20,767 nucleotides of DNA from an uncultured bacterium (GCA_963977445.1 CAXBPH010000109.1:1-20767), one strand, 5' to 3'. Counted from the first letter of the stretch, positions 1,415 to 19,257 are shown. Program-made: numbers and translations. Notes: generated by a model from the sequence alone, not told the origin.

Positions 1415-3036
1415 ATGTTATGGAGCACCTGGAGGCCCTGGCGACCTATAATGGTCCCTGGAAGGCCCTCCGTGAAGAAGCGCCCCGGCTGCAGGAGCGC
1501 GTAACCGAATTACGTGCCCGTGAGACGCGCCTCGATGATGTGTTGGTGGTGGCCCTGGTGGGCGGCTCCGGCGTGGGAAAATCCACGTTGTTGAATGCTA
1601 TCGCCGGGGACCAGATCGCCCTGACCTCGGCCATGCGCCCCTGCACCACCAAGCCCCGGGCTTATCATCCCCCGGGAACGGAACTGCCCTTTCACGAGTG
1701 GGAGGGCGTGCCCCGATCGGCCCTGGAGCACCTCGTGCTCATTGATACGCCCGATTCCGACAGCATTGCCCATATTCATCGTGAGCGGACCATCGACGTG
1801 CTGAAGCAATGTGATTTGATCGTATTGTGTGCCAGCACGGAAAAGTATCTCGATGAGGCGACCTGGTCGTTGCTCCGTCCACTCCGTGGTCAGCGTGCCA
1901 TGATTTGCGTGGAGACCAAGGCCGGTCCCCATCCATCGGTAAAAGAACACTGGCTGGAACGTCTCAAGGATCAGGGCTTCGAAGTGGGGCCCTATTTCCG
2001 GGTAAACGCGTTGCGCACCCTGGATAGGAAGATGGCGGGCACACCCGCTGGGGATGACGAATACGATGGCCCGGCCTTTGACGAATTTCTCCGTGAAGAA
2101 CTGACGCGGGAGCGTATCGCGCGCATCAAGCGATCCAACGTGGCGGGCCTCCTCCAGAAGGCGACTGGCCAACTGGAAAGCATCGCCGCCGAAATTCGCC
2201 CTTCGCTGAAGACCCTGGAAACCCGCATCACGGAAGCCGACAAGGCCCTGGCACAGGAGACGCTCACGCTGGTGAGTGATCACCTCTTTGCGGAGCCCCA
2301 CCTGTGGACCTACGCCGTGGGGCGGGAAACGAGCATTCGATCCAAAGGCTTTGTGGGGCTGTGTTATCGCATGGTCGACGGCCTGCGGAATCTGCCCATG
2401 CGGCTGCCCGGCTTGCTGACCTGGAAGGGGCTCAAGAACAGCGATGGCCGGAAGGCCGCCGAAATGCTGACCACCGACGATTTGGTCCAGGCTGGCGCAA
2501 CGATGGCACCCGTGCGGGTGTTGGAATTCTACCGTGCCCAACAGAGTGAGCTCGCCCTGGCCTTTGTGCGCGGGGGTATTGATGCCCTGGATAGCCCGGC
2601 GGGCGAAGCGGCCTTTCAGAAAGAATTGGATACCCGGCTGGTGTCCGTCATTAAAGGGCCGGCGCGGGAACGGGTTCAACAAGGTGCCCGACGTCTGAGC
2701 CGGTGGTTGACGACGGTGGTGCTCGACGCGCCGCCCGTGGCCTTCCTCGTTTACACCGCTTACCTCGTGGTGACGAACTACCTGCATGCCCGCTTTCTCG
2801 ATATTGGCTTTCTCGTCCACTCGGCGGCTGTTTTGTCCATCATAACCGCCGTGGAACTCGTGGGTTTGTCCTTCGCCATTCGGAGTGTGGCCTGGATGGC
2901 GCGCCAGGGAAGTCTGCAGGATCTTCGCGTGGCTTTTCTCGCTCCTCGCCTCGCCTTTCAGCAAGAAAAAGTGGCCCTGTCCGACGTGAAGGAAAATCTG
3001 GAACGCATCGAAGCGGTAAAGGCCATGGTGCTGTAG
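1396..3036 (+). CDS. Dynamin-like/TRAFAC GTPase (50S ribosome-binding GTPase-type domain) with two C-terminal TM helices
   Basis: G1 GGSGVGKST, G2 RPCTT and G3-like LIDTPDSDS are present, then a helical stalk and two hydrophobic segments (PPVAFLVYTAYLVV; FLVHSAAVLSIITAVELVGLSFAI). The GTG start overlaps the upstream gene by 19 nt; ATG at 1420 is an alternative. Confidence 0.8.
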   Translation: MSESIINVMEHLEALATYNGPWKALREEAPRLQERVTELRARETRLDDVLVVALVGGSGVGKSTLLNAIAGDQIALTSAMRPCTTKPRAYHPPGTELPFHEWEGVPRSALEHLVLIDTPDSDSIAHIHRERTIDVLKQCDLIVLCASTEKYLDEATWSLLRPLRGQRAMICVETKAGPHPSVKEHWLERLKDQGFEVGPYFRVNALRTLDRKMAGTPAGDDEYDGPAFDEFLREELTRERIARIKRSNVAGLLQKATGQLESIAAEIRPSLKTLETRITEADKALAQETLTLVSDHLFAEPHLWTYAVGRETSIRSKGFVGLCYRMVDGLRNLPMRLPGLLTWKGLKNSDGRKAAEMLTTDDLVQAGATMAPVRVLEFYRAQQSELALAFVRGGIDALDSPAGEAAFQKELDTRLVSVIKGPARERVQQGARRLSRWLTTVVLDAPPVAFLVYTAYLVVTNYLHARFLDIGFLVHSAAVLSIITAVELVGLSFAIRSVAWMARQGSLQDLRVAFLAPRLAFQQEKVALSDVKENLERIEAVKAMVL

Positions 3037-3274: not shown

Positions 3275-3730
3275 TCAGTTGGCCACCACCAAAATAATCA
3301 GGCCGAGGAGCACGATGACCAGGAGCAGGGCGACGATGAGGAGGGCGGCCTTGCTGCCGGTGATTTCCGGTACGCTGCCTGCATGGCTGGAAGAGCGCAT
3401 GGCTTTCACCTGTTCCGGCGTGGGGCCATCGCGGTGGCGCGCCTCGGTCTGGACGGTTCGGTTCAGGGTAATCATGGCGTCACTGACTTCGATCTTGAGT
3501 TTGATCGCTTCCTGATGCTGGTGATGCAGGGCGAGCTCATCGAGCAGATCGAGGGCTTCGTTGGTTTCGCCAATTTCGAGGAGGCACCGTGCCCGGGGAA
3601 ACATGATGTTGGGGGAATTGGGAAAGGCCTGATCCAATTCATCCAACAGGGCGAGGGCTTCATCAAAACGCCCTTGCTGATAGAGCATGTTGGCCTGGCC
3701 GAATTTATTATGCGCTGTGTGTCTTTCCAT
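3275..3730 (-). CDS. Small TPR protein with a C-terminal membrane anchor
   Basis: TPR-like helices (FGQANMLYQQGRFDEALALLDELDQAFPNSPNIMFPRARCLLEIGETNEALDLL) and a terminal hydrophobic helix (ALLIVALLLVIVLLGLIILVVAN); ATG start. Confidence 0.8.
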   Translation of the reverse strand: MERHTAHNKFGQANMLYQQGRFDEALALLDELDQAFPNSPNIMFPRARCLLEIGETNEALDLLDELALHHQHQEAIKLKIEVSDAMITLNRTVQTEARHRDGPTPEQVKAMRSSSHAGSVPEITGSKAALLIVALLLVIVLLGLIILVVAN

Positions 3731-3760
3731 AGGAACCCCTGTGTAGCAAGACTCCCCTTG

Positions 3761-3789
3761 ATAATACTTCAGTTCTCCACAGGGCGCAA
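3761..3789 (-). promoter_or_regulatory. Putative sigma70 promoter for the 3275..3730 TPR gene
   Basis: The minus strand reads TTGCGC-N17-TATTAT, ending 30 nt upstream of the ATG at 3730. Confidence 0.5.
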
Positions 3790-3967
3790 CTTACGGTTGT
3801 GGCAGGGCAATTGCATTAAAAGGCCGGTAGACTTCGTTTCCCATTTGCTGAACAGTCTGGACGGCGGGGTGCCACCATCGGGTTGACATCGAAAAATCGG
3901 AAGCCCGTCAAACGGACCTTGTGTGCGTGCATGCTTTAATGCTATTTCTCTCACGGTTGTGGCCGAA

Positions 3968-4846
3968 TCAGGCCACGCCGCTTGCCAGATTTGAGAAGAC
4001 CCACCCATAGCCGAGCAGGAGCATGATGGCGGCGAAAATTATGGAGAATCCCGTGGTCAATACCGATTGCAGTATGAGGAAGAGAATTAAATCACCTATG
4101 GGCAGTGAATAATGCCGTCGCAGTACAACGGGTATGGCGAGCCAGCCGAGGACCGGGACCAGGAGCAGGAGACTGATGGTAAAGGCGTATTGCATGACAT
4201 CGAAAATGTTATCGACGACGGTTTCGTAACGGTGATGACGCATGAGCCCGAGGAGCACATACATGGCCACCGCGTTGGCGGCGAAACTTGTTGCCAGGAA
4301 GATAACCAGCACCTGACCGAAGGACAGGGTGTCGCCATCGGTGCGTAGTGAAATGCCCGTCGAGGGCCCCGCACCGGGTGCATAGTAAATGAAGGCACCT
4401 GTGGCGATGAGAAAAGTCAGGATCAGGGCGGTGGCACCGATGCCATAGAGAAGGACCCGGGCGGAACCCCGTTGGGCAGGCAGGGGCGTCTGGTTGTCCG
4501 GGTTCTGCATCAGCATGGCGATGAGGCGGTGGTCGTCGTGGGTGAGATTGCGAGCGCCACTGGCGGAGATAAGGGGGGCCTCGACCCGGTCTTCGCCGGC
4601 AAAGCGATTGAGAATCAGTTCGGCACGTTCGTCTTGAAAACGCTCGATGAGTTGCTCGCACAGGGCGATGGATTCCTGAGCACGGCCCAGCTGCTCCAGA
4701 CACAGTGCGGCTGAATACATGATATGCTTCTGGCGCGGAAACTCTCGATTGAGCCGTTGCAGAATGTGCAGTGCGGCGTCATACTGACCACGTACGTAGA
4801 GAGTGTCGGCTTGCCGGAAGTGTTGCTTAGCTTCCGAGGTGTCCAA
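3968..4846 (-). CDS. TPR-containing polytopic membrane protein
   Basis: N-terminal TPR (FRQADTLYVRGQYDAALHILQRLNREFP...) followed by about four hydrophobic segments. The TTG start is preceded by purine-rich GGGGAAGAGACGGA. Confidence 0.75.
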   Translation of the reverse strand: MDTSEAKQHFRQADTLYVRGQYDAALHILQRLNREFPRQKHIMYSAALCLEQLGRAQESIALCEQLIERFQDERAELILNRFAGEDRVEAPLISASGARNLTHDDHRLIAMLMQNPDNQTPLPAQRGSARVLLYGIGATALILTFLIATGAFIYYAPGAGPSTGISLRTDGDTLSFGQVLVIFLATSFAANAVAMYVLLGLMRHHRYETVVDNIFDVMQYAFTISLLLLVPVLGWLAIPVVLRRHYSLPIGDLILFLILQSVLTTGFSIIFAAIMLLLGYGWVFSNLASGVA

Positions 4847-4960: not shown

Positions 4961-7900
4961 TCAGTCCTCGGGCACGGGGCCAAAACCACCGCCACCGGGC
5001 GTCTCGATGATGACCCAATCTCCCGTCTCTATCTCCAATTGACAATGGCCGGGAAGGGGCGCTTTTTTACCGCCGTGGATGTGCCAGTTTTGTCCAGGGA
5101 GGCCGGGCTGACCCCCCTGGACCCCGTAGGCCTGGGTGAAGCGTCGTTCCATGAGGCACGAGAGGGTCAGGGGTTGGCGAAATTCAAAGGCCCGATGAAG
5201 GCCTTCCCCGCCATGGGTGGTGCCCTTGCCGCCGGAGCCCTGCCGAAGTGCGAAGGCCCGCAAGATGACGGGATAGCGTCGTTCCAGGACTTCCGGGTCG
5301 GTAATGCGGGTGTTGGTCATGTGACTGTGGACACCCGATGCGCCGGGGAAATCCGGACCGGCTCCCGTCCCACCGCCCATGGTTTCATAGTAGCCGAAGG
5401 TCGCGTCGCCGAAGCTCAGGTTGTTCATCGTGCCTTGGCTCCCGGCGAGGTTGCCGAGGGCCCCATAGAGGGCTTCGCAAATGCGCTGTGACGTTTCCAC
5501 GTTGCCGCCCACGACGGCGGCGGGCGGCCTGGGTGCCAGGAGAGAACCCGGCGGAATGATGACGATAATGGGATCCAGGCAGCCGCTGTTCAGCGGTATG
5601 GGCTTGCCCACGAGGGTCCGGAACACATAGAGCACCGCCGAGAGTACCACAGCACTTGGTGCATTCAGGTTGCCCTCGAGTTGCGCTGCCGTGCCCGCAA
5701 AGTCCACCGTTGCCCGTCGATCCGCAATGGTGATGGTGCAGCAAATGGGCGCGCCACTGTCCAGGCGTTCTTCCGCGTGGTAGGTGCCATCGGGAAGGCC
5801 GGCGATGCAATCGCCCATGGTGTCGGCGGCGTTTTGACGCACGTGGTGCATATAGGCCTGAACCACGGCGACCGAATAGTTAACACACAGTTCCAGCAAG
5901 AGCGAGACGCCGAGCACATTGGCGGCTATCTGGGCGCGAAAATCGCTCATACGCTCCTCGATATTTCGGGCAGGCCACTCTCCCTGCTGCAGGGCCGCAC
6001 GCAATGGCCCTTCCCGGAAGGTGCCGCCACTGACGAGGAGAAAATTGTGGAATCGAAGACCCTCCTCATCGATGCTGCGCGAGAAGGGAGGCATAGAGCC
6101 CGGTACGATGCCGCCAATGTCGGCGTGGTGACCGCGATTGGCGACGAAGAAGATGCATTCTCCGGTTTCTGAAAAGACCGGCGTGACCACCGTCATATCG
6201 GGCAGATGGGAGCCGCCATGGAAGGGGTCGTTGGTGAGATACACATCACCGGGTTGGAGGGTGTCGCCTCGATCCCGCACGATGGCTTTCACGCTCTCGC
6301 CCATGGCACCCAGGTGCACGGGGATGTGGGGGGCATTGGCCACGAGGGCACCGTCGGGACCGAAGAGGGCGCAGGAAAAATCCAATCGTTCCTTGATGTT
6401 CGCCGAGTGGCTGACCCGTTCTAGGCACTGGCCCATTTGTTCGGCCACTGACATGAACAAATTGTTGAAGACTTCCAGCAAGACGGGGTTCGCCTCGGTG
6501 GCCACCCGCTCCCGTGTGACGGTGTGCTGGTGGGAAAGAATCAGATTGTGGTATTGGTCCATGCGCGCGGTCCAGCCGGGATCGACGACGATGGTGGAGC
6601 CTTCTTCCACGATGAAGGCCGGGCCGGTGAGTTGGTGGCCCGGCTGCAGGGCGCTTCTCGGGTAGACGGGCGTTTCCAGGGGGCACCGCTTTCGTTCCCC
6701 ATTCGGCTGGATACTGTCAAAATGGACAACAACCTGCCCGGTGCGCAGGGTTTCCAGGGGTGCCGTTGCCCTGTTCATGCGCTCCGATGATGGGGCGAGA
6801 TCATCGGTGGCCGAAGACCCTTCTGCCATGATGCGGAGGTTAACCACCTCAATGGGCTTCTCGGCCATGGTGAAGCCGTAGCGTTGTTGGTGGCGGGCCG
6901 CAAAGGCTTCGCTCAGATCGGTGTCCGGGTCCCAGTCGACTTCGATGCACCCTTCTACGCCTTCGTATCGCAATTCCACGTGGCGAGCAATTTGAATGGA
7001 CGTTGCCCCGTCCTGTTCGAGTACGGCCTGGCAGGCCTGGGTCAATCGCGCAAAGCCCGATTCGATCTGATTGCGGAGCGCCGGTTCCCATCGTGCCAGT
7101 ATGGGCGCGGACTCCCCATGGGTCAGTCGGGCGAGTCCCATGCCGTAGGCGCTCAAGACGCCCGCCCAGGGATGGAGCACAATGTCCTGAATGCCCAGTG
7201 CCTCGGCGATGGCGCAGGCGTGTTGGGCACCGGCACCACCAAAGCAGCACAAGGCATATTCCTGGACGTCATAGCCGCGCGCCACGCTGACGACTTTGAT
7301 AGGTTTCACCATGCGCTCGTTGGCGATGCGGATGAAACCGGCGGCGGCTTCTTCCACCGCCACGGTCCGGCCCAGCGCCTTGCTCATTGCGTCGCTGAGT
7401 GCCTGGAGGCGCTGAAAGGCGGCCTCGGTATCGAGGCCCTCGTCGGCCCGGGGGCCAAAGCATCGGGGGAAATAGGCGGGCTGGATACGGCCCAATACGA
7501 GGTTGGCGTCGGTCACCGTTGCGGGGCCGCCCTTGCCATAGCAGGCCGGACCCGGTTGGGCACCGGCACTCTCCGGGCCGACCATACAGCGATGTCCGTC
7601 GAAGGTCAGAATGGAACCACCACCAGCGGCGACCGTCTCAATCCACAACATGGGGGCTTTTATGCGAATCCCGGCAACGTTTTTTTCGTAGACAAAATCG
7701 CTGCCATCGTCGACACGACTCACATCGGTGGAGGTGCCCCCCATATCGAAGCCAATAACCTTTGGAAAACCTGCTTCCCGGCAGACGGCGGCACACGCCA
7801 CCACACCCCCCGCGGGCCCCGACAATATGGCGTCTTTGCCGGAGAATCGTTGGGCATCCGCGAGGCCGCCGTTGGATTGCATGAAATGGAGGCGGGTCTG

Positions 7901-8611
7901 GCTACCCAGTGCCGCCCGGGCCCGTGCCACATAGTCGCGAATTACTGGCGTGAGATAGGCATCCGCCACCGTCGTATCGCCCCGTCCCACGACTTTAATC
8001 TCGTTGGCGACTTCGTGACTCAGGCTTATCTGGGAAAAGCCCGCCTCTCGGGCCAGTTCACCCAGCCGAAGTTCATGACGGGCATCGACATAGCTATTGA
8101 GTAAAACCACGGCCAGACTGTCGATGCCCTGGGTGCGAAGGGCCTCAAGAGATTTTCGGGCCGCCGTTTCATCCATCGCCCGATCAATGGTGCTATCACT
8201 GAGGATGCGCTCCCGGATTTCTATGGTTTCGAGGGCCAGGTACTCGGGCAGTTCGATTTTCACGGCGAAGAGGTCGGGTCGGTCCTGGTACCCGATGCGG
8301 AGCAGGTCGCGGAAGCCCTCGGTCACCAGGAGAGCGACGGGTGCTCCTTGTCGTTCCAGCAGGGCGTTGGTGGCGAGGGTGGTGCCCATGCGGACTTCAT
8401 GAATCTGGTCGGGCGGTATGGCGCTTCCAGAGGGCACGCCGAGGAGGGTCCGGATGGCATGGAGCGGTGCGTCGTCGTAGTGATCCGGGTTTACGCTGAG
8501 GAGTTTGCGGAGATGGAGCCGCCCCGCCGGGTCACGGGCCACGATATCGGTGAAGGTGCCGCCCCGATCAATCCAGAAATCCCAGCCGGGTCGGGATAGG
8601 GTAGTGGACAC
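4961..8611 (-). CDS. Fused hydantoinase A/B / ATP-dependent 5-oxoprolinase family protein (OPLAH/Oxp1-type)
   Basis: A-half motifs: [64 protein letters not shown]-half motifs: [60 protein letters not shown] moved the start from 8656 to GTG at 8611, which follows the RBS AGGAG at 9 nt spacing. Confidence 0.93.
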
Positions 8612-8657
8612 GGTGAAAAGCTCCTGCAAGTGACAATCAGCGGTAAATGGAAGCACA

Positions 8658-8860: not shown

Positions 8861-8889
8861 TTGACACGTATGTCCCGTTGGAGTATTAT
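8861..8889 (+). promoter_or_regulatory. Near-consensus sigma70 promoter upstream of the polysaccharide-export operon
   Basis: TTGACA (8861-8866), 17-nt spacer, TATTAT (8884-8889). Confidence 0.75.
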
Positions 8890-9151: not shown

Positions 9152-10177
9152 ATGCGCATGGATGGAACGCAAACGTACTTACGGCAGTTGGGTTTGACGG
9201 AGCAGCCCTTTGCTCCGACAGCAGACCCAGTCTATTTCTATGCCACACGAGGCCACAAAGAGTGCCTTTTTCGCCTCTGGAATGCGGTAGACGCAAGCCA
9301 TGGTATCGCGGTCGTTCTTGGCAACTACGGCACCGGAAAGACCACCCTCCTCCGCAAACTCATGACCGGCATGGCGGCCGACCCCGAGCGGTATTTGACG
9401 GCGGTCATTGGTTCGCCCATTCCTTCGTGGACCAGTTTTGCCCTCCTCGAAAGCATTGTGGCCCAGTTTGGGTTGCGTCCCCACGAACAATCTTTCGTGG
9501 CCTACATGGAAGCGCTCAATCAACATCTGCTCGACAATCGTGGTCGAATTTGCACCCTGATTATTGACGATGCACAGAATCTGAATAAGCGTGGACAGCT
9601 TGAATTGCTCCGCCTCGTTCAAAACCTCGAAACCCAGCAGCAGAAACTACTTAACCTGGTTTTCTTTGCCCAGTTGGAGTGGATTCAGGTATTGCAGGCG
9701 GCCCCCAATTTTGAACAGCGTATCAACCTGACCTGCACCTTAGAATCTATCCAATTTGACGAAGCCCAGCAATTTATTGAGTTCCGACTTCGTCAGGCGG
9801 GCGCCCAGCCGGGTACCGGGCCGGTCTTCGATGAAGGGGCCCTCCGTGCGATCCATGCTTATGCCGAAGGCAGCCCCCGGGTCATGGTTACCTTGTGCCG
9901 AAATTCGCTCTTAATGGCCGCTCAGCTAAAGACGCGGCAGATAACACACGATATAGTTGTACATACGATCGAAAAGACCACCCTTCCGGACCCCGAAAAA
10001 CGCGCGCGGGTTGCGGCGGCGGTGAGTAGCGCTGTCCGACCACCAGCACCCGTCGTGCCTGCGGTGGGCGGTGGTAATCGCGAACGTAATTTGCGGGAAC
10101 AACAGACTCGGGATCAGCGTGCAGCTGATTTACTGTTGCGGTCCGCTCGAATCCGACAGGGTCAGGAATTGGGCTGA
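9152..10177 (+). CDS. ExeA/GspA-family AAA ATPase (general secretion pathway protein A-like), without a TM or peptidoglycan-binding extension
   Basis: N-terminal YLRQLGLTEQPFAPTADPVYFY matches the ExeA Y..fGL...PF...PDP..fy pattern. Walker A GNYGTGKTT, Walker B LIIDDAQNL, ELLRLVQNLE, QRI, FIEFRLRQAG and GSPR are present. ATG at 9158 is an alternative start. Confidence 0.88.
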   Translation: MRMDGTQTYLRQLGLTEQPFAPTADPVYFYATRGHKECLFRLWNAVDASHGIAVVLGNYGTGKTTLLRKLMTGMAADPERYLTAVIGSPIPSWTSFALLESIVAQFGLRPHEQSFVAYMEALNQHLLDNRGRICTLIIDDAQNLNKRGQLELLRLVQNLETQQQKLLNLVFFAQLEWIQVLQAAPNFEQRINLTCTLESIQFDEAQQFIEFRLRQAGAQPGTGPVFDEGALRAIHAYAEGSPRVMVTLCRNSLLMAAQLKTRQITHDIVVHTIEKTTLPDPEKRARVAAAVSSAVRPPAPVVPAVGGGNRERNLREQQTRDQRAADLLLRSARIRQGQELG

Positions 10178-10179
10178 AC

Positions 10180-12240
10180 ATGTCACCAAATGCGGAAAAG
10201 GATCAAGACAGCCACCCGGAAGAGGGCGATCTCCACTTGGAGCAGCCGTTGGATTCCATCGAAGGCAACCTTATGGCCGAAATGCCCACGGACGATCGCT
10301 TTGAAAGCGGCGTACCCGAAGGGCAACGCGCCAATTCCCTGGATTTTATTCAGATGACGGGTCTTACCCGTGCACCGCTCCGCAATGCCTCTGCCGAATC
10401 GATTTCTGAGACCGAGGTTAACGACGATGATCTGAACCCGACGGCGCCGTTGAGTTTTTATGAAAAGGGTGTCACCGATGTGGATGATGGTGACGGCGGT
10501 GACCGCGACGGGCTTTCCGATATGGCCCTGGACGCGAGTCTGATTCCAGAGCGTGGTTCAGACACCCTTCGGAGTGTCCGTGCGTCGTCATCGATAGACG
10601 CGTTTCGCGATATTGTGGCGGGACTCGAAGCGGGCACAGAGAAATTCGAACCGCCGGTACCGTCCTACCCCGAGCCCGAACTTAATGACGTGGTGGAAGC
10701 GGTGCCGGAGAGTTTTGGGGAAGAGCGCTCCGCCTCGTCTGATTTACTGGCCATGTTGGATGCCCTGGACGCCGCCGCGAAACACGCTGATTCGACAGAC
10801 GGTCTTCCTGAAGCGCAGGCCTATGATATGCCCGAGCAGCTAGATGATGAGGACTTGCCTGCCCTTGCAGCACCCATAGATGAACCCGCTCCGGTGGATA
10901 GTGAGGCAATGGTAGATGATTGGGACACCCTCTTTGAATCGGTAACACCCGGTGAGTCGTCGGTAAGTCCTGTTGCCCCAGCGCCTGCTCGCGCGCCCAG
11001 TGCCAGTGGTGCCTTGGCGGAAGCGGAGCAGTTGATGCAATCCCTGGGCCGTGTCAGCAACGACAAGGGTCCCTCCGAAACACCCAAACCGACACCAGTG
11101 CCGGTTCCGAGTCTCTTGCCCACCTATTCCAACACCGTGGCGACGGTGGCCGAGCTCGACGGAGAGCTGGCCTACGACTACAGCGCGGCCCCGACACGTC
11201 GGCGCTCCAAGCGCCACTCCCGAGCCGTCCGTCGTGGTCGAAGGGCGCTCAAGATTATTGTAGCGCTGGTGGTGATTCTGGGCGGGCTTGGCACACTCAT
11301 GATGAAAATTGTTTTGCCTGCGTGGGAAAAGGCCGAAGGCCTGGAGTCCAAGGCAAGCCGATTCATGAATGAAGGCAAGTACGTGGAAGCATCCGACGCC
11401 TACAAGGCCCTCTCCAGGAAACTGGTCGGGGACCCCACCGGCCAGGCCGACGCTCAGTTTAAGGCGGCTTATGTCTTGACCTTGGGTGAGCCCCGCACCG
11501 GCAACGAACGGGACAAGCGGTATCGGTCTGCACTTGAGCAGTTCCAAGCCTTTGTTGATAGCAATCCCCAGCACCCGAAACGTACGCGCGCCCTGACAAT
11601 TATGGGACGCTTGTACTATGAGTTACACGATTACGACGAAGCCATCGACTTGCTCCGCGATCAGGTTGAGCCCCGCCAAGATCCGCAGGCTGCCCTGACG
11701 ATGTTGCGCTATCTGGCCCGGTCTTACAACATGAAGTCGGACTATGAAGCGGCGGAAAGTGCCTATCTGCGTGCCGTTGGTGTGGAAGGAAGTTATGGCG
11801 TTGACCAGGATTATTCCAGCCTGGGCGAAATGTTCAAAGCGCGCGCGGACCTTGCTGTAAACAGTGAGGCTGACAAAGAGCTGTTCATCGAAAAGGCAAA
11901 AAACTACTGGCAACTTGCGATGCAAGTTCCCGGTATAGACCCGGCGCGGAAAGTGGCCTTGCGGGAGAGTCTGAACTGGCTTGATAGCGCGGGCCAGGTT
12001 CCTGCCGACCCAGCGGCCACCGAAGGTATAACGGATTTGGCGGTAGAGACACTGCCGATGGAAACGCCTGACGTTGTTGCAGAGCCCACCCTGCCCGAGC
12101 CGGAGAACCTTCCCACGGAAGGCACGCAGGAAGAGAATCCGAATGCAGAATTGAACGCGGTGCTGGACGTATCGAATGCGTCCATGCTGAGCGGGGAAAC
12201 GGCCCAGGATTCTTCTGCGCCCCCGGTTGAAAACGAATAG
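10180..12240 (+). CDS. Bitopic membrane protein: long acidic low-complexity N-terminus, one TM helix, C-terminal TPR domain
   Basis: The first ~340 aa are Asp/Glu/Pro-rich. A basic patch RRRSKRHSRAVRRGRRALK (11197-11253) precedes the TM IIVALVVILGGLGTLMMKIVL. TPR-like helices follow (ALEQFQAFVDSNPQHPKRTRALTIMGRLYYELHDYDEAIDLL; LRYLARSYNMKSDYEAAESAYLRA). It starts 2 nt after the ATPase stop. Confidence 0.8.
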   Translation: MSPNAEKDQDSHPEEGDLHLEQPLDSIEGNLMAEMPTDDRFESGVPEGQRANSLDFIQMTGLTRAPLRNASAESISETEVNDDDLNPTAPLSFYEKGVTDVDDGDGGDRDGLSDMALDASLIPERGSDTLRSVRASSSIDAFRDIVAGLEAGTEKFEPPVPSYPEPELNDVVEAVPESFGEERSASSDLLAMLDALDAAAKHADSTDGLPEAQAYDMPEQLDDEDLPALAAPIDEPAPVDSEAMVDDWDTLFESVTPGESSVSPVAPAPARAPSASGALAEAEQLMQSLGRVSNDKGPSETPKPTPVPVPSLLPTYSNTVATVAELDGELAYDYSAAPTRRRSKRHSRAVRRGRRALKIIVALVVILGGLGTLMMKIVLPAWEKAEGLESKASRFMNEGKYVEASDAYKALSRKLVGDPTGQADAQFKAAYVLTLGEPRTGNERDKRYRSALEQFQAFVDSNPQHPKRTRALTIMGRLYYELHDYDEAIDLLRDQVEPRQDPQAALTMLRYLARSYNMKSDYEAAESAYLRAVGVEGSYGVDQDYSSLGEMFKARADLAVNSEADKELFIEKAKNYWQLAMQVPGIDPARKVALRESLNWLDSAGQVPADPAATEGITDLAVETLPMETPDVVAEPTLPEPENLPTEGTQEENPNAELNAVLDVSNASMLSGETAQDSSAPPVENE

Positions 12241-12306
12241 TCCAGCGAACAGAGCGAAAAGATTTGGCGTTGAGCCAACGTAAATAAACCAGGTGGAGTG
12301 GAAACT

Positions 12307-13788
12307 ATGCCATCCCAGATTAGAGTATTCATTCGTGCGTGCCTCGTGGCGACCTTCGCCATCTGCTCCGCATCGTTATATGCCGAAGAAGACATGTCGG
12401 GCGAGGCGCTGAAGCCGGGCGATTTGGTCTTTGTGAATGTGCACCGTCAGCCCGAGCTTTCCACCACGACCCAGCTGGATAGTCAGGGCAATGTGGAAAT
12501 GCCCTATATCGGCAATGTTTCCCTGAAGGGATTGAATCTGGGCGACGCCGGTGCGCGGGTATCGATGGGGCTGAAGAGCGTGCTCAAGAATCCCCGGGTT
12601 ACCGTCACTCGCAGCGTCGAGGGTATGGGGGCGCTTCCCGGCGGCTTCATGCGCACCCAATCGATGCAGACCCAGGTCGTGCCGCTGAACAATTCGGATG
12701 CAGGCACCTTGGAAAAAGCCTTGTCCGGTATGTCCACGGCTGGCGGTAGTGTCAGCTATGATCCGAATACGAACAGTCTGATCCTGACGGATGAGCCACC
12801 CGTCCTGCAGAATATGTTGTCAGTAATTCGCGAGCTGGACCAGATGGAATCCCAGATAACGCAGGTGCTCATCGAGGCCAAGATTGTAGAAGTGGAAACG
12901 GCCGCCGCCAAAGAATTGGGTGTGCGCTGGTTTGCCCAGGGCGACCACGTGGGTACGGGCTATACGCCGCCCCCGCGGCAGGATGCCTTGTTGAATTCTA
13001 TCCGTCAATCGGTGGGGCCGAGTTACAACGAGTCCCTTGATTCCGGCGCCCGCGGCGGCGGTATCAGTCGGCGTTTCGTTGACAATACCCGGTTTGATCG
13101 TCGATTGCAGGTCCCGGTCCAATTGGCCGCGCCCGGCCAGATGTTCCTGGGTTACATGAACAGTGGCATCGATCTGGGCGTTATGCTGGATGCCCTCGTG
13201 GCCGACGACAAGGCCGAATTGCTGGCCTCCCCCTATGTGGGGACTATCAATCACAAGGCGGCCACCATCCGTATGACCGAGGAATTTCCGTATTCCGAAG
13301 TTGGCTCGGCCGGATTATCTACGGTGGTAAATGTAAACTTTCTGGATATTGGTATCGTCCTCGAGGTCGTGCCGCATGTGCGCCGCGATCCCTCCGGAGA
13401 ACGGTATGTATTGGTAGAGCTCGCACCGGAAGTCTCCACGGCAGTTGGCGTGTCCAATGGTGTGCCCGTGCGGGCCGTGCGGAGCAGCAATAGTCAGCGA
13501 ATTGTACGCGATGGCCAATCCCTTGTTATCGGCGGCATTGTCATGGCCGACAACCATACGGTGATTCAGAAGCTTCCCGGACTCGGTAATCTTCCCATCT
13601 TTGGCAATCTCTTCAAGCATAAAGAACAGAGCCGCAGCAGTCGCGAATTGATGATCTTTGTTACGCCCACGATTCACGACCGGCCAGAAGATATTCGATG
13701 GGAACGTAGCCTCGAAATGGACGGATTTGGTCACAACGATGCCTTTCTTGCTGCGCTCGAATCCCGTGCAGAAGTACGGAAGGACTAG
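12307..13788 (+). CDS. Fusion of a polysaccharide biosynthesis/export (Wza D1, Poly_export) domain with a type II/IV secretin (Secretin_N + Secretin)
   Basis: Signal peptide (..SASLYA/EE). Poly_export signature LKPGDLVFVNV..PELS....LDSQGNVEMPYIGNVSLKGLNL...LKNPRVTV (~12409-12612). N3/NolW-like TQVVPLNNSDA..SVSYDPNTNSLILTD..IRELD (~12670-12843). Secretin core QVLIEAKIVEV...ELGVRW...LLASP...DIGIVLEVVPHV...VRDGQSLVIGG...KLPGLGNLPIFGNLFK...RELMIFVTPTI. ATG 12307 has GGAG 8 nt upstream and is preferred over GTG 12298. Confidence 0.88.
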   Translation: MPSQIRVFIRACLVATFAICSASLYAEEDMSGEALKPGDLVFVNVHRQPELSTTTQLDSQGNVEMPYIGNVSLKGLNLGDAGARVSMGLKSVLKNPRVTVTRSVEGMGALPGGFMRTQSMQTQVVPLNNSDAGTLEKALSGMSTAGGSVSYDPNTNSLILTDEPPVLQNMLSVIRELDQMESQITQVLIEAKIVEVETAAAKELGVRWFAQGDHVGTGYTPPPRQDALLNSIRQSVGPSYNESLDSGARGGGISRRFVDNTRFDRRLQVPVQLAAPGQMFLGYMNSGIDLGVMLDALVADDKAELLASPYVGTINHKAATIRMTEEFPYSEVGSAGLSTVVNVNFLDIGIVLEVVPHVRRDPSGERYVLVELAPEVSTAVGVSNGVPVRAVRSSNSQRIVRDGQSLVIGGIVMADNHTVIQKLPGLGNLPIFGNLFKHKEQSRSSRELMIFVTPTIHDRPEDIRWERSLEMDGFGHNDAFLAALESRAEVRKD

Positions 13789-13791
13789 CCT

Positions 13792-16047
13792 ATGTCCAGC
13801 ATTGATGCACCCGTTCTAGAAGAGACCACGCGGGAAAACCAGGACAACCAGTTTCGTTTTTTGTGGAATGTGGTGTCGGAGCGTTGGATCCTCCTGGTGA
13901 TCGGTACCCTGTTGGGGGCCATCTCTTTTGGGGGCATCACGTGGCTGAACCAGACGACCACGCCCACCCGTTACAACAGTCTCGGCACGTTGGTCATCTC
14001 CCAAGGTCGCACGGCATTCGTCCAATCTCTCAATACAACGGCGAGTGCGTCCCTGTATGAAATGACGGCCGAAAAGCTCGTCAATGGCACCCGGGCTACC
14101 TTGCTCGCAGAAGAAGTTGCCAAGGCACTTATACAAAAAGATATTGCCACCGGCGGTAAATACAGTAGTGTGGCCACCCCGGAAGAATTTCGCGCCCAGG
14201 TGAACCGTATCGAAAGCAGAATCAACATGGTGGCCCTGGATCCCCAGAATATAGAGATCCGAGTCCAGGGGTGTGAAACGGCACACGAAGCCACCGATAT
14301 TGCCGAATATGCGACACGGGCCTTCCTTAAGCTGAACCAGCAGGTTCATTTTGAATTGGCCAGCCAGAACCACAATGACGCCCTGGCGATGATCAAGCTA
14401 CTTCGCGATGACCTTACCGAGGCCGAAAAGGCCCGCTTGGCGTTCTTGTCTAAGCACGGCTTTCGGGCATACCAGGATATTGATGATCTGATGACCAGCA
14501 AGGAAAATACCTTGCGGGAAATCGAATCCACCAAAGAAATCACTCAGCAGAATCTCGCCAAGCTGGATGCGGAACTCGCTCAAGCTCGGGAGCAGTTCTC
14601 CGATTCACTGGATCAGCCCAGCGATACGATGATCAAGGGGCTGCTCACTGATCTGGACAAGCTTACACAAGAGCAGTTCACCCTGAGCGCCGTTTATCAG
14701 CCGGGCTGGCCGCGCCTTCTCGAGTTGGAAGAAGAGATTGCCGAAACGACGGGCCTTATTCGCAGGGCGGAAGGACAGCTTAGTTCCGGTGCTTTGGGTG
14801 GCAGTGATATCTGGACGCGGCGCAACGAAATTTACCGCCAGCAGAAAGAATATCACCAGCAGTTGGCGAGTCTCGAAGCGCGGGAAGAATCTATAAAAAA
14901 ACAACAGGAAGAATTGCTTCCACGGGTGCCCGAGCTGGCCAATATCAAGTTGGATGCGGAGCGGCTCAAACGGGAAGTGGACGCCATCGAAGACCGGTTG
15001 AATCAGGCTTCGAATCGCGAAATGGAGATTCGTGCTGCCATCGAGCGTGGACTAGGGTCCGTCGAGCGCAAAGATTCCATTGCGGCCGCTATCCCTATTT
15101 CATCCCAGAGTGGTAAAGAGAAATGGGTGAATTTTGCCATTGGCGCGATCATCGGATTTGTAGTTACCTTCGGGTTTGCTATGGTCACCGAATATAACGA
15201 TACCTCTATTCGCAGTATCGAAGACGTAAACGAGTACATTGGCCTCGAAGTGATCGGTACCATACCCCGGATGCGCTTTGGTCGACCACGGGGTGGTCGA
15301 CGACGAAGGGCGACTTACGTGAGCACGGTGGACGAGGAGCAGATTGACTCCTGTATCGTGACGCAGCATGATCCCAAGTCTCCTATTTCAGAAGCCTATC
15401 GTACCTTACGTACGAACTATCAATTCGCGACCATTAAGCAAAAGCCCAAAACGGTCATGGTGACCAGTGCGGTGCCCGGCGAAGGCAAGACGACGACGGC
15501 CGTGAATCTGGCCGTGACGATGGCTGATCGCGGAATGCGCGTGCTAATTGTCGATACCGACTTGCGGCGCCCTAATGTGCACCGCGTGTTGCGTATGGAA
15601 CGTGGTCCGGGCCTCGCAGACGTATTGCGGGAAGGTCTGGATCCCAAGAGTGTAATTCGGCCCACCCGCATTGAAAACCTCTGGATTATTTCCAGTGGGC
15701 GGGTTCCGCCGAATCCATCCGAATTAATCGGCTCAGACCACATGGCCGAGTTAATGGGCCAGTTGGGCGATGAGTTTGACCTGGTTATCTGCGATGCGCC
15801 TTCTGTACTCGTTGTGACGGACCCGGTTCTTCTTGCCACCCATGTGGATACCTGCATGATGGTGGTCTCCACCAACAACGCACGTCGCGAAACCGTCATC
15901 CGCGCGAAAAAACTGCTGACGACCGCTCAGGTCTCGGTGGCTGGTGTCGTGGTGAATGGTCTGGAAACTACCCGACGCCACTACTACTACTATTATTACT
16001 ACTACGATGACGGCTCTTCGGGACGCCGCAAGTGGTATCACTTCTAG
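13792..16047 (+). CDS. wzc: Polysaccharide co-polymerase / bacterial tyrosine autokinase (Wzc, PCP-2a)
   Basis: TM1 WILLVIGTLLGAISFGGITWL, a long coiled-coil periplasmic region and TM2 FAIGAIIGFVVTFGFAMV. Kinase motifs: PKSPISEAYRTLRTN, Walker A SAVPGEGKTT, A' IVDTDLRRP, PPNPSELI, Walker B VICDAPS, and a C-terminal Tyr cluster HYYYYYYYYDD. Confidence 0.93.
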   Translation: MSSIDAPVLEETTRENQDNQFRFLWNVVSERWILLVIGTLLGAISFGGITWLNQTTTPTRYNSLGTLVISQGRTAFVQSLNTTASASLYEMTAEKLVNGTRATLLAEEVAKALIQKDIATGGKYSSVATPEEFRAQVNRIESRINMVALDPQNIEIRVQGCETAHEATDIAEYATRAFLKLNQQVHFELASQNHNDALAMIKLLRDDLTEAEKARLAFLSKHGFRAYQDIDDLMTSKENTLREIESTKEITQQNLAKLDAELAQAREQFSDSLDQPSDTMIKGLLTDLDKLTQEQFTLSAVYQPGWPRLLELEEEIAETTGLIRRAEGQLSSGALGGSDIWTRRNEIYRQQKEYHQQLASLEAREESIKKQQEELLPRVPELANIKLDAERLKREVDAIEDRLNQASNREMEIRAAIERGLGSVERKDSIAAAIPISSQSGKEKWVNFAIGAIIGFVVTFGFAMVTEYNDTSIRSIEDVNEYIGLEVIGTIPRMRFGRPRGGRRRRATYVSTVDEEQIDSCIVTQHDPKSPISEAYRTLRTNYQFATIKQKPKTVMVTSAVPGEGKTTTAVNLAVTMADRGMRVLIVDTDLRRPNVHRVLRMERGPGLADVLREGLDPKSVIRPTRIENLWIISSGRVPPNPSELIGSDHMAELMGQLGDEFDLVICDAPSVLVVTDPVLLATHVDTCMMVVSTNNARRETVIRAKKLLTTAQVSVAGVVVNGLETTRRHYYYYYYYYDDGSSGRRKWYHF

Positions 16048-16097: not shown

Positions 16098-17615
16098 ATG
16101 TCATTCTTCCGCTCAGAACGCGGTATCGGTCGTGGTGAAGTTGCCGAGAGCCAGCTGGAAGTCCCTATCTTCGCGGTCTTCATGCTTGTTTGCAGCATGA
16201 TACTGGTTGCGCAGCACCTCCTTTTGGAAAACGATAGCCTTACCGCCGCGCTTTCCATCAGTATGGTCGTGTTCGGGGGCACCGTAGTGCGCGTTGAGTT
16301 CGGCCTGTTTGTGTTGCTTATCGCCATGTTGCTGTCGCCAGAGATCGAACTACGTGCCGGGGTTAACGGGGACCGCAGTCTGAACATCCGCTACGATGAT
16401 ATCCTGATCATCGTTATTTTTCTCGGCGTCATGGTCAAACTCGTATTCGAGGGGCGTTTGATGCTCTGGCAGCCCAGCCCCATCAACGCTGGCATCGTGG
16501 CCTACTATGCGGTCTGTATCTTTGCCACCTTGCTGGCCTACGAGCGCAGTCTGCCTGCCTGGGACAAGCGGACCGCTTTCTTTGTCATGTTGAAGATGCT
16601 GGAGTTCTACCTGATATTCTTCATGGTGGCCCACTCCGTTCGCACGTCGAAAGATATTCGAACGCCTCTGGCACTATTTTTTGTCGTCATGTTGATTGTG
16701 AGCGCCTACGGCATTTACTCCATTGGAACGACGCCACGGGTGAGTGCGCCCTTTGAAAAAGGGGGTACGGAGCCCAATACCCTGGGCGGCTATCTCGTAA
16801 TTTGCCTCTGTGTGGCCCTCGGGTTGTGTCTCCAGGCCCGACGCTATCGAATAAAACTGATCTATCTCGCCATCGTAGTTCTGGGCACAATCCCCCTGCT
16901 CTATACGCTGTCGCGGGCGTCCTATATCGCGATCATCGTGGGATTTACCGTCATTGGAGTCATGAGTCGAAAATACCTCGTGCTGGTTGCGCTAGCGGCC
17001 ATCCTGTTGAGTTCGACGCTCATTATGCCCACGGAAGTCATTGAACGTGTCGCCTTCACCGTTCAGGAAGAGGGTGGGCGTGATCTGACGGTCGGTGGAC
17101 GAGAGCTTGGTGTTAAGGTGGATAAGTCGACCTACGAGCGGGTACACGTCTGGCGAAAAGTGGGATTTATTCTCAGCCTGGGACCCCAATTCTTTTTGTT
17201 CGGTGGTGGCGTTTCCTGGGAGTCGGTGCTCGACAGTCAATACGCCCGTGTGCTGCTGGAAACCGGTACCGTTGGGCTTCTTGCCTTTGTATTTCTGCTG
17301 TATCAGCTACTGAGAACCACCCGCCAGGCCTATCGGTGGACAGATGACTGGATGGGCCGGGGCATCGCGTTGGGCATGTTTGGGGCCACAGCGGCCCTCG
17401 TGGTTCACTCCTTTGGAACGATTTCATTCCTGATCGTTCGCATCATGGAGCCCTACTGGTTTCTTATTGCCCTGACCGTAACGATTCGCAATGAAGCTAT
17501 CTTCAGGCATCTGCAACGCCACCGCGCCCAACAGCGTATACGGCAACCGAAAATTGTAGAACCCGCCGTTGAAGAACTTCCTCTCGAAGCCGGTGTGGGC
17601 GCTGCCAGCCAATAG
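16098..17615 (+). CDS. O-antigen ligase / Wzy polymerase family (Wzy_C) membrane protein
   Basis: There are ten or more hydrophobic segments. Family-like motifs are EPNTLGGYL, TLSRASYIA, STYERVHVW and FGGG...DSQYARVLLETGTVGL. It lies directly downstream of wzc. Confidence 0.8.
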   Translation: MSFFRSERGIGRGEVAESQLEVPIFAVFMLVCSMILVAQHLLLENDSLTAALSISMVVFGGTVVRVEFGLFVLLIAMLLSPEIELRAGVNGDRSLNIRYDDILIIVIFLGVMVKLVFEGRLMLWQPSPINAGIVAYYAVCIFATLLAYERSLPAWDKRTAFFVMLKMLEFYLIFFMVAHSVRTSKDIRTPLALFFVVMLIVSAYGIYSIGTTPRVSAPFEKGGTEPNTLGGYLVICLCVALGLCLQARRYRIKLIYLAIVVLGTIPLLYTLSRASYIAIIVGFTVIGVMSRKYLVLVALAAILLSSTLIMPTEVIERVAFTVQEEGGRDLTVGGRELGVKVDKSTYERVHVWRKVGFILSLGPQFFLFGGGVSWESVLDSQYARVLLETGTVGLLAFVFLLYQLLRTTRQAYRWTDDWMGRGIALGMFGATAALVVHSFGTISFLIVRIMEPYWFLIALTVTIRNEAIFRHLQRHRAQQRIRQPKIVEPAVEELPLEAGVGAASQ

Positions 17616-17631
17616 GGGGCTACTGCCAACC

Positions 17632-19134
17632 TTAGTGGCCGCGCACGCCTTCGAGACGGGGCACCGCGTAGGTGCCCATGCGTATCTGGTCAAACATGCT
17701 CTTCTCGGTAGCAAATTCCTGTGCCCGTTCCAGACTGATTTGCTTCTGATTGAACAAATTGAAGAGGTAGTGTTCAAAGAGGAAGGAGTGGGAAACAGAC
17801 TGCTGCATCCCAATTCGTATGTGATCCGTGCTGCCTTCCATGATGCCGTCGGCCACGGCCTTTACATCATTGAGCATCATTTCCAGGGCAGGAATGCGGC
17901 CACCACCAATTTTTGGAACCAGGCGCTGGCAAATGACGCATTGCAGGCAATCACGTAACTGCAATTTGACGAGGTCCCGTTCTATCGGGTCGAAGAAACT
18001 GAGCACCCGGTTAACCACCTCCGCCGCCGTGTTGGCGTGGAGGGTGCTGATGACCAAGTGACCCGTGGCGGCCGCATTGATGGCGGAGCGAATTGTATCG
18101 GGGTCACGCATTTCACCAATGAGGATGACATCGGGATCGTGACGCAGGGCACCGGTCACGGCGTGAAAGAACGATTTCACATCCATACCGAGATTCCGCT
18201 GCGAAATGATGGACTTCTTGTTTGAGTGAACGAACTCGATTGGATTTTCGATGGTCAGAATATGGCTGGAGCGGGTGGTGTTGATCCAGTCAATCAACGC
18301 GGCCACCGTGGTGGTCTTTCCGCTCCCTGTCATGCCCGTAACGAGCAACAGACCCCGGTGTAACTCCGCCAGCTTTACCATGGTGTCCGTGGGTACGTGG
18401 AGCTCTTCAAAGCTCGGCACCGTTTCCGGAAGATAGCGAAAGGTACAGTGGGGCGCGCCTGATTTTATGAAGGCCGAGACTCTGGAATAGCCCAGGCCCG
18501 CCTGGTGATAATTGAAACTCGTCTGCTTGTCCGCGATGAATTCGTTCCAGGCATCATCGAGGGAGATTTCCTTAATCAGGGAGAGAATCTGCACCGCTGA
18601 AAGGGGACCCATAATATCGGCTGGTCGGGTTTCCCCATCGATTCGAAACACGGGGCGCACCCCGGGCGAAAGGTGCACATCACTGGCGCGGTATTGGATC
18701 ATGGCCTTAAACAACAGCTCAGCGCTGATGTGATCGAGGCGATATTTACCCCCTTCCGCGCGCCAGACTTCGGGAATGGGCATGGCCTTCGCAAAGGTGT
18801 CGAAGGCCTCCATTGCGGCATGGGCGGTGTCGGGGGAGGTGGGCGCAAAGGTGTAAAACACGCAACCTTCTTCCACATGGCTGGTGCCGTGGGGCGAGAG
18901 GGTCGCAATCGATGCGTCGAGAGCGTCTCGCTCGGGCCATGTCTCGGGCACGCGAATCAAGAAATGATCAAAGGGGCCTTCGAATTCGGAGCGCTCGGCT
19001 TCCAGATGGAGGTCCTCGTTCCAGGCAGTAATGCGCCGGGGAACCCCTTCCGTTCGGAGAAGATGTTTCTCCAGAAGTCCTATAACACCACGAAACGATT
19101 GTTGGGCACCGGTACCCATAAGAAAAACAGCCAC
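17632..19134 (-). CDS. pilT: PilT/PilU-family type IV pilus retraction-type ATPase with an N-terminal extension
   Basis: ASDVHLSPGVRPVFRIDG, Walker A GMTGSGKTT, Asp box TIENPIEFVH, ALRHDPDVILIGEMRD, His box TGHLVISTLH, VICQRLVP and GRIPALE. I moved the start from 19233 to GTG 19134, where the RBS GGAGAGAGGT lies 6 nt upstream; ATG 19119 is an alternative. Confidence 0.88.
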   Translation of the reverse strand: MAVFLMGTGAQQSFRGVIGLLEKHLLRTEGVPRRITAWNEDLHLEAERSEFEGPFDHFLIRVPETWPERDALDASIATLSPHGTSHVEEGCVFYTFAPTSPDTAHAAMEAFDTFAKAMPIPEVWRAEGGKYRLDHISAELLFKAMIQYRASDVHLSPGVRPVFRIDGETRPADIMGPLSAVQILSLIKEISLDDAWNEFIADKQTSFNYHQAGLGYSRVSAFIKSGAPHCTFRYLPETVPSFEELHVPTDTMVKLAELHRGLLLVTGMTGSGKTTTVAALIDWINTTRSSHILTIENPIEFVHSNKKSIISQRNLGMDVKSFFHAVTGALRHDPDVILIGEMRDPDTIRSAINAAATGHLVISTLHANTAAEVVNRVLSFFDPIERDLVKLQLRDCLQCVICQRLVPKIGGGRIPALEMMLNDVKAVADGIMEGSTDHIRIGMQQSVSHSFLFEHYLFNLFNQKQISLERAQEFATEKSMFDQIRMGTYAVPRLEGVRGH

Positions 19135-19187
19135 GACAATACCTCTCTCCAGAGATTGACCAGTCTGTAATGTAAAAACTCTTCGCC

Positions 19188-19216
19188 ATGGTACGCCATC
19201 CTTGTGTACTATGCAA
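19188..19216 (-). promoter_or_regulatory. Putative sigma70 promoter for the PilT-family gene
   Basis: The minus strand reads TTGCAT-N17-TACCAT, 53 nt upstream of GTG 19134. Confidence 0.5.
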
Positions 19217-19227
19217 ACCCGTTTTTC

Positions 19228-19257
19228 TTGCACCCCAAAAGGGGACTGCCGTATAAT
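19228..19257 (+). promoter_or_regulatory. Putative sigma70 promoter for the aldehyde dehydrogenase
   Basis: TTGCAC (19228-19233)-N18-TATAAT (19252-19257). Confidence 0.55.

Follow-up and report, generated by a model that had tools for sequence, protein, structure and literature searches.

A Wza-type D1 domain joined to a secretin directly upstream of wzc: a candidate outer-membrane exit for polysaccharide in Hydrogenedentota

The window, the whole stretch of 20,767 nucleotides that was analysed, is contig C109 of an uncultured bacterium (GCA_963977445.1 CAXBPH010000109.1:1-20767) whose genome measures 7.1 Mb, is 94% complete and has Candidatus Hydrogenedentota as its nearest named relatives among the matches listed. 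The operon of interest lies on the plus strand. Its first gene (9152..10177, +) encodes a purely cytoplasmic AAA ATPase of 341 residues (PF13401), which is taken here to be of the ExeA/MshM type and which scores 151.8 bits against TIGR03015, below the cut-off of 324.5. The second (10180..12240, +), assigned by Pfam and sequence analysis, encodes a bitopic membrane protein in which a transmembrane segment at about residues 355-373 separates an acidic, low-complexity N-terminal part with two conserved motifs from TPR repeats that are presumed to be periplasmic. The fusion gene under study (12307..13788, +) follows, and behind it lie a gene for a Wzc-type PCP-2a co-polymerase with a tyrosine autokinase (13792..16047, +; TIGR01007, 180.7 bits, above cut-off) and one for a polytopic O-antigen-ligase/Wzy-like protein with about 12-13 transmembrane segments (16098..17615, +; PF04932, 23 bits, below cut-off). 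A sigma70-like promoter sequence (8861..8889, +; 11 of 12 positions) lies 5' of the operon as a consensus match only; the search found 9 such sites, against 5.0 +/- 2.3 expected by chance.

Convergent with the operon is a gene for a PilT-family ATPase with an extra N-terminal region of about 170 residues (17632-19233, -). At the other end of the window are tandem dynamin/GTPase-like genes (2-3036, +), the first cut by the contig start and the second of the Dynamin_N/MMR_HSR1 type, and two small TPR-plus-membrane genes (3275-4846, -) adjoining a 5-oxoprolinase/hydantoinase gene (4961-8656).

The fusion gene is a single open frame of 493 amino acids running from an ATG at 12307 to a TAG that ends at 13788. 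A GTG at 12298 was considered as the start and set aside in favour of the ATG on account of its ribosome site, a GGAG placed 7 nt 5' of it. The wzc ATG at 13792 leaves a gap of 3 nt after the stop codon, as a sequence-only reading of the window had stated. That reading also described one uninterrupted frame with a signal peptide, a Poly_export domain, one N3 domain and a secretin core; Pfam, AlphaFold2 and Foldseek agree on these three domains. The signal peptide (residues ~1-26; 12307..12384, +) is SPI-like, with a hydrophobic stretch and a cleavage site near A26 predicted by eye; of 116 homologues, only 2 show a lipobox-like pattern. The Poly_export (PES, Wza D1) domain (12406..12609, +) is class-3-like by Pfam, conservation, Foldseek and alignment, with a short beta1-beta2 loop, no Tyr ring and an LKNP loop at residues 93-96. 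After a variable linker of 12-19 residues comes a single N3-type Secretin_N domain (12670..12855, +; Pfam, conservation), which leads directly into the secretin core (12856..13686, +; Pfam, AlphaFold2, GspD/PilQ alignments). The core comprises outer-barrel strands, a conserved cap/loop of ~65 residues (~213-275), two gate hairpins and an amphipathic KLPGLG segment; gate, cap and amphipathic segment were assigned from the GspD/PilQ alignments and partly from general secretin anatomy.

The HMMER check proposed with the earlier reading places all three profiles on one polypeptide: PF02563 at residues 34-101 (55.7 bits, cut-off 28), PF03958 at 122-183 (51.1 bits, above cut-off) and PF00263 at 296-456 (117.9 bits, above cut-off). 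Beyond these domains Pfam returns nothing for the fusion at E<=0.01, including SLBB (PF10531/PF22461) and Wza_C, whose absence had been noted, and the N0/STN, N1-N2 and AMIN profiles (PF21305/PF07660/PF11741); the same scan does detect SLBB in the other OPX protein of the genome. The AlphaFold2 monomer model, built from a 116-row alignment, has a pLDDT of 79 and a pTM of 0.56, with confident D1 and N3 (block pLDDT mostly >90) and low confidence in the linker and the loop at ~213-285. Foldseek ranks secretins first (5wq7, E 9e-21), followed by WzaB and Wza. The N-domain model superposes on WzaB (9n9a) with an rmsd of 0.9 A over 69 columns and on Wza (2j58) with 2.9 A over 87 columns, so that both the PF02563 score and the fold speak for a Wza-type domain. 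Mean column conservation is 0.63 in D1, 0.65 in N3 and 0.72-0.76 in the core, falling to 0.32 in the linker and 0.26 in the signal region; because D1 is conserved as much as N3, it is not decaying. The protein is thus a secretin by fold, although by curated score it is neither a PilQ nor a GspD (TIGR02515 and TIGR02517; 176.9 against a cut-off of 284.35 bits and 166 against 351.35 bits) and its N-domains differ from theirs. It is a PilQ-like secretin that lacks the N0/N1/AMIN region and carries an OPX D1 in its place, which bears out the proposal that N0 had been exchanged for a Wza-type D1.

The fusion is real and conserved, and it is no assembly artefact. Among 120 listed homologues, drawn from 664 matches among 8000 candidates and 46-86% identical to the window protein, 119 contain all three domains and the remaining one is a fragment of 314 residues. 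In 59 of 135 genomes of the phylum a single stop-free match covers D1 through the core. Because these independent sequences share the architecture, a chimeric assembly at the D1/secretin junction, for which the earlier reading had asked that the sequence be checked, is excluded. Among the listed pieces, short contigs of one DNA read set do not bridge the junction (share 0.06), which bears neither way. The ESM Atlas contains a 57-member cluster of the same architecture under an automatic name.

Gene maps were drawn for 43 loci, namely the window, L001, L003 and 40 regions among the 59 full-length matches picked for spread and contig size. The usual order is ATPase, TPR, fusion, wzc and Wzy/O-ligase. 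In all 43 loci the fusion stands between the TPR gene and wzc, the latter directly 3' of it; 38 of them also have the ATPase gene, the five misses falling at contig ends. The ligase/Wzy-like gene occurs in 40, with two misses at contig ends and one true absence (L059), where Wzc also has no Tyr run. The proposed link to wzc and wzy therefore holds across homologues, while the conserved upstream ExeA-like ATPase and membrane TPR genes had been overlooked. Wzc itself has two transmembrane segments around a periplasmic part, a coiled-coil arm tip near residues 296-310, a Walker A motif and a Tyr-rich tail, and a profile search with it matches Wzc and PslE structures. Of 41 sequences, 37 have intact kinase motifs and 39 an intact Tyr tail, so BY-kinase activity is predicted, and 40 have an aromatic residue at 302 in the arm tip. 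The convergent pilT has homologues in 14 of the 43 loci. A gene for an FHA-GAF-HD(-GYP-like) protein, divergent from the operon and seen in 26 of the 43 loci (for example L043:14790-16547) but not in the window, hints at control by c-di-GMP.

An orthologue of the fusion occurs in 67 of the 135 phylum genomes (59 full length and 8 partial, as read from the matches), and the N-terminal 450 residues of Wzc are matched in 63 (E<=1e-20). Both are found in 63 genomes, the fusion only in 4, Wzc only in none and neither in 68. The four exceptions are two genomes in which wzc is cut by a contig end (G032, G100), one whose contig ends within the fusion (G101) and one whose adjacent wzc is sub-threshold (G040). 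Families f3 (0 of 23) and f8 (0 of 10) have no Wzc match, and their secretin matches are weak. As the genomes are kin, this co-occurrence is a measure of linkage and not a count of independent events. One locus (G042:C135:6798-9187) combines a fusion match containing an internal stop and a frame change with a short adjacent wzc frame, and this operon is possibly decaying as a unit.

The D1 domain has the features expected of a part that docks on Wzc. In E. coli, Wza D1 is the Wzc-docking domain, and its deletion abolishes Wza-Wzc colocalisation, according to PMC12881504. No gap is needed to align the fusion's D1 with class-3 WzaB, and this D1 is missing the 11-residue loop of Wza that makes the Tyr gate (PMC12819527). 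Its alpha1-beta5 loop, L93-K94-N95-P96, is 94, 91, 83 and 100% conserved, and K94 aligns with R106 of WzaB, part of the R106-R107 motif that PMC12819527 describes as binding the PCP WzcB. By alignment, D1 thus resembles that of class-3 WzaB and keeps a basic residue at the predicted PCP-docking position. When D1 (28-106) and the Wzc arm (215-400) were modelled together from 41-row alignments, the score of 0.21 stayed below the mark of 0.32, with controls not folded, and it carries no weight here. Taken with the gene order, the features of D1 indicate that the fusion is probably a secretin pore that docks on Wzc and exports polysaccharide, that is, the outer-membrane exit of a Wzc-dependent exporter; the cargo, the D1-Wzc docking and the opening of the gate are parts that we infer.

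Two properties of the pore bear on whether polymer would pass through it. Secretin structures solved so far contain 12-15 chains and those of Wza and Wzc 8, which makes 1:1 docking impossible, and both gate hairpins of the fusion are near-constant in length and within 0-2 residues of those of GspD/PilQ, which disposes of a shortened or lost gate. No pseudopilus is encoded at the locus and no known opener is present there. These points would suit a role in which D1 only tethers or positions the secretin at Wzc as a scaffold, sensor or checkpoint, with the polymer leaving through a second OPX or an unlinked beta-barrel. In the source genome, PF02563 and above-cut-off Wzc matches number two each and form pairs, one on C109 and one on C52, the latter a conventional OPX(SLBB)-Wzc-TPR-exosortase locus whose SLBB-bearing OPX could serve. 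PF02563 is matched in 103 of the 135 genomes of the phylum, frequently more than once. That second OPX, however, has an adjacent Wzc of its own, the fusion occupies the place of wza and its occurrence follows that of its own Wzc exactly, and no other OPX match was found in the loci with a query that is insensitive. The tether is accordingly judged improbable. By domain content there is no barrel among the conserved neighbours of the fusion. For a polysaccharide pore, the symmetry mismatch may be absorbed by the variable linker; in one cryo-EM class four Wzc arms were enough to hold a Wza, as reported in PMC12881504. As a guess, the gate may be opened by the polymer pushing or by the Wzc arms pulling.

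In Hydrogenedentota, only 3 of 43 loci have a glycosyltransferase match within roughly 10 kb, and 21 queries of limited sensitivity returned no priming glycosyltransferase or wzx in 53 stretches, nor any exosortase, GspC or PilM/N/O; the search is insensitive because it missed the fusion's own D1 when the second OPX was the query. In the source genome, priming glycosyltransferase and flippase-family genes are found on other contigs. The polysaccharide setting that had been proposed for the locus is upheld in its tie to wzc and wzy, although the Hydrogenedentota loci mostly go without glycosyltransferase, flippase and priming genes. The Wzy assignment of the last gene is itself weak, with polymerase and ligase indistinct by sequence. 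The PF04932 family also covers ligases and oligosaccharyltransferases. PDB sequence searches with this protein and with the ATPase gave no match.

The shortage of sugar genes leaves some room for a pore that docks on Wzc to pass a glycoprotein or glycan-protein conjugate made by the O-ligase-like protein, for example an exosortase/PEP-CTERM substrate. Folded proteins are established cargo of secretins, and in M. xanthus the export of MYXO-CTERM proteins is the work of GspD (cited in PMC12475490). The ATPase, PCP and ligase score best or well against XrtA/PEP-CTERM models, if below cut-off, and an exosortase is encoded elsewhere in the genome. Yet no exosortase or GspC match was found near the 43 loci, and pilin-type motifs lie near only one. 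The ligase-like protein has none of the extra domains of the PglL type in Pfam, and a complete Wzc whose kinase is intact belongs to polymer chain-length control and export.

A second group of fusions speaks to the same question. A profile search of 1.84 billion representatives, the only route by which forms with extra SLBB domains were sampled, placed 14 D1-bearing proteins among its best 150, two of them distant, and a follow-up yielded 8 distant fusion proteins and one from a locus. The member compared is about 32% identical to the window protein, and in the ESM Atlas this clade is of mixed phyla. Two of 80 metagenome loci (L083 and L084) carry the fusion, in the order histidine kinase, response regulator, HATPase_c_4-TM-TPR gene, fusion, PCP and separate tyrosine kinase; in L083 one small ORF lies between the HATPase_c_4-TM-TPR gene and the fusion. 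Both are without an ExeA-like ATPase and pilT, and their TM-TPR gene is weakly similar to that of Hydrogenedentota (E 2e-5). In that gene (L083:7526-9418, L084:3139-4803) a RecG-C-like HATPase_c_4 domain is fused through one transmembrane segment to the TPR repeats, and it sits where Hydrogenedentota have the acidic low-complexity region. Downstream in L084 are Wzy_C, three GT4 genes, one GT2 gene and an asparagine synthase gene, and the Wzy_C protein passes the PF04932 cut-off (36.5 bits) and is 27% identical to the ligase/Wzy-like protein of the window (E 2e-40). Downstream in L083 are a radical SAM gene, Wzm, Wzt and GT2 genes, with GT4 genes upstream; this locus (L083:11631-17341) thus sets a PCP and tyrosine kinase, parts of the Wzy type, before Wzm/Wzt, shows these in place of a wzx, and no Wzy-like match occurs in the 21.6 kb seen. 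These two loci provide the best evidence that the partner pathway would make a glycan. With the second clade lying among glycosyltransferases, a glycoprotein cargo is considered unlikely. A channel that imports a polymer, whether DNA or an external glycan, is less plausible still, and very improbable. HofQ/PilQ secretins take up DNA and the core of the fusion scores against HofQ models, below cut-off, but its partners are biosynthetic (Wzc, the Wzy-like protein and the clade-2 glycosyltransferases) and the gene maps show no conserved uptake genes.

The origin of the fusion was examined with quick trees of the secretin part, of 126 and 56 rows, with most of 428 candidate rows omitted by subsampling. 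Each fusion clade forms one group, and both are joined, at unstarred support values of 91-92, with P0140 and P0146, two PilQ-like STN/AMIN secretins. A tree that unites all 23 fusions is not rejected and is 5.2 log units better (p-AU 0.66), and the data are compatible with a single origin from a PilQ-like secretin. Some secretins from the profile search (P0133, P0141, P0148 and others) are giants, 1,500-5,500 residues long and showing 10-30 matched stretches, and they probably carry many N-domain repeats.

The PilQ-like kinship of the nearest non-fused secretins is one argument for a reading in which the protein serves a type IV pilus or T2SS as a specialised secretin and its D1 links Wzc signalling with the activity of the pilus or the glycosylation of pilin. 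The convergent pilT and the divergent HD-GYP gene point the same way, as does the resemblance of the ATPase, TPR and secretin set to MSHA mshL-M-N. MshN is a TadD homologue (PMC6668835), and ExeA-like matches occur in 11 of 78 non-fused secretin loci. Against this reading, the fusion lacks N0, the domain of ExeD that binds ExeB (PMC4098917), and no PilM/N/O or GspC match lies near the loci, where the pilin-type motifs are near one locus and GspE-family matches are mostly the convergent pilT. The source genome also has separate gspC-gspD-gspE and pilM/O-pilQ clusters with their own secretins. The ATPase was rejected as proof of an MSHA/T2SS module: its family occurs in a plain OPX-PCP-kinase locus without a secretin (L163), it is absent from the second clade along with pilT, and the genome has, at another place, an ExeA-ExeB pair of canonical appearance. 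A pilus or T2SS function is therefore held to be rather remote, and the ATPase, which the second clade lacks, is regarded as an accessory. Two further secretin loci of the source genome were noted in passing: a gspD split over two overlapping frames with N0 in one ORF and the rest in the other (L177, G000:C358:1360-3998), through either a frameshift or an assembly error, and two tandem short secretin-domain genes of about 380 and 420 residues with no obvious pilus or T2SS neighbours (G000:C10:40127-42540).

Returning to the polysaccharide pore, its closest parallels are the known OPX translocons. With class-3 OPX proteins (M. xanthus WzaB-WzpB-WzcB and EpsY-EpsX; PMC12819527, 10.1101/2022.04.04.486985 and 10.1101/2022.02.11.480155) the fusion shares a gapless D1, the missing Tyr-ring loop, the basic PCP-loop residue, a PCP-2a partner with a kinase and a beta-barrel crossing of the outer membrane. 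It differs in having no SLBB domain, in not being a lipoprotein and in carrying its barrel on the same chain as a multimeric gated secretin, where theirs is a separate monomeric 18-stranded porin. With class-1 E. coli Wza-Wzc (2J58, 9R64; PMC12881504) it shares one chain from D1 to the outer membrane and a position directly before wzc, and a continuous channel would likewise form; N3 and a secretin, however, replace D2/D3 (SLBB) and the helical barrel, 12-15 chains are expected in place of 8, no wzb lies between fusion and wzc, and the gate is at the membrane and not at a D1 Tyr ring. With PilQ/GspD (5WQ7, 4AV2, 6W6M) it aligns through N3, double-barrel core, gate hairpins and amphipathic segment, but it lacks N0/STN, N1/N2 and AMIN, and no linked pilin, platform or alignment genes are apparent in the loci. 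In its way of working it is most likely analogous to an OPX translocon of class 1 or class 3. An OPX has been defined as having at least one SLBB domain after D1 (10.1101/2022.02.11.480155); the fusion has the PES domain and is paired with a PCP (43 of 43 and 2 of 2 loci) but has no SLBB, and hence it falls outside every defined OPX class.

In the mechanism proposed here, the fusion would be exported by Sec and would form a ring of 12-15, probably with help from the TPR protein. TadD helps the assembly of its secretin (PMC6668835), and the TPR protein may aid assembly likewise or guide the polymer. The N0/N1 end of ExeD is its partner-binding end, with N0 binding ExeB (PMC4098917); a D1 in place of N0 as connector would therefore tie the pore to Wzc and not to a pilus platform. 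Suspended from N3 by the flexible linker, the D1 domains would bind the helical arms of Wzc at their tips, as happens in Wza-Wzc and WzaB-WzcB. The Wzy-like protein would polymerise lipid-linked repeat units made by enzymes encoded elsewhere in Hydrogenedentota or next door in the second clade, and the polymer would then run from Wzc through the D1 and N3 rings to the secretin gate, with Wzc phosphorylation cycles timing the docking. The balance tips slightly toward a further translocon class, in which a secretin was co-opted once from a PilQ-like ancestor by a swap of N0 for D1, forms a gated 12-15-mer driven and opened by octameric Wzc, and has been kept in Hydrogenedentota and at least one further lineage. 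The carriers seen so far are all uncultured assemblies, and the genomic case for export, known from genes alone, appears strong.

No description of a D1-secretin fusion, and thus no prior role in protein secretion, was found in open-licence PubMed Central full texts and bioRxiv, although the tables of OPX surveys may list it unremarked. The novelty claimed by the sequence-only reading stands for the fusion and is narrowed for the pore, for secretins are already proposed as slime and EPS pores in PMC12475490, which reports that cyano- and myxobacteria depend on them to secrete slime. The PilQ/GspD proteins of those slime nozzles are likewise proposed to be outer-membrane exopolymer gates, but they are ordinary secretins and have no known link to a synthesis pathway, whereas the fusion has D1 and a cognate Wzc. 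What is new is therefore the hard-wired D1-Wzc link and not a polymer-passing secretin as such.

Two outer-membrane solutions have been described for Wzx/Wzy export, namely the helical barrel of Wza and a short OPX with a separate porin. If the proposed function is correct, the fusion would be a third, secretin-based solution, in which neither pilus nor needle is required to open the secretin gate, and a further instance of secretin co-option. It would also bear on two questions raised in PMC12475490, one being whether polysaccharide goes through secretins directly and the other whether secretins connect to a synthesis pathway already known; because the link lies within one polypeptide, a small, defined system may serve to test it.
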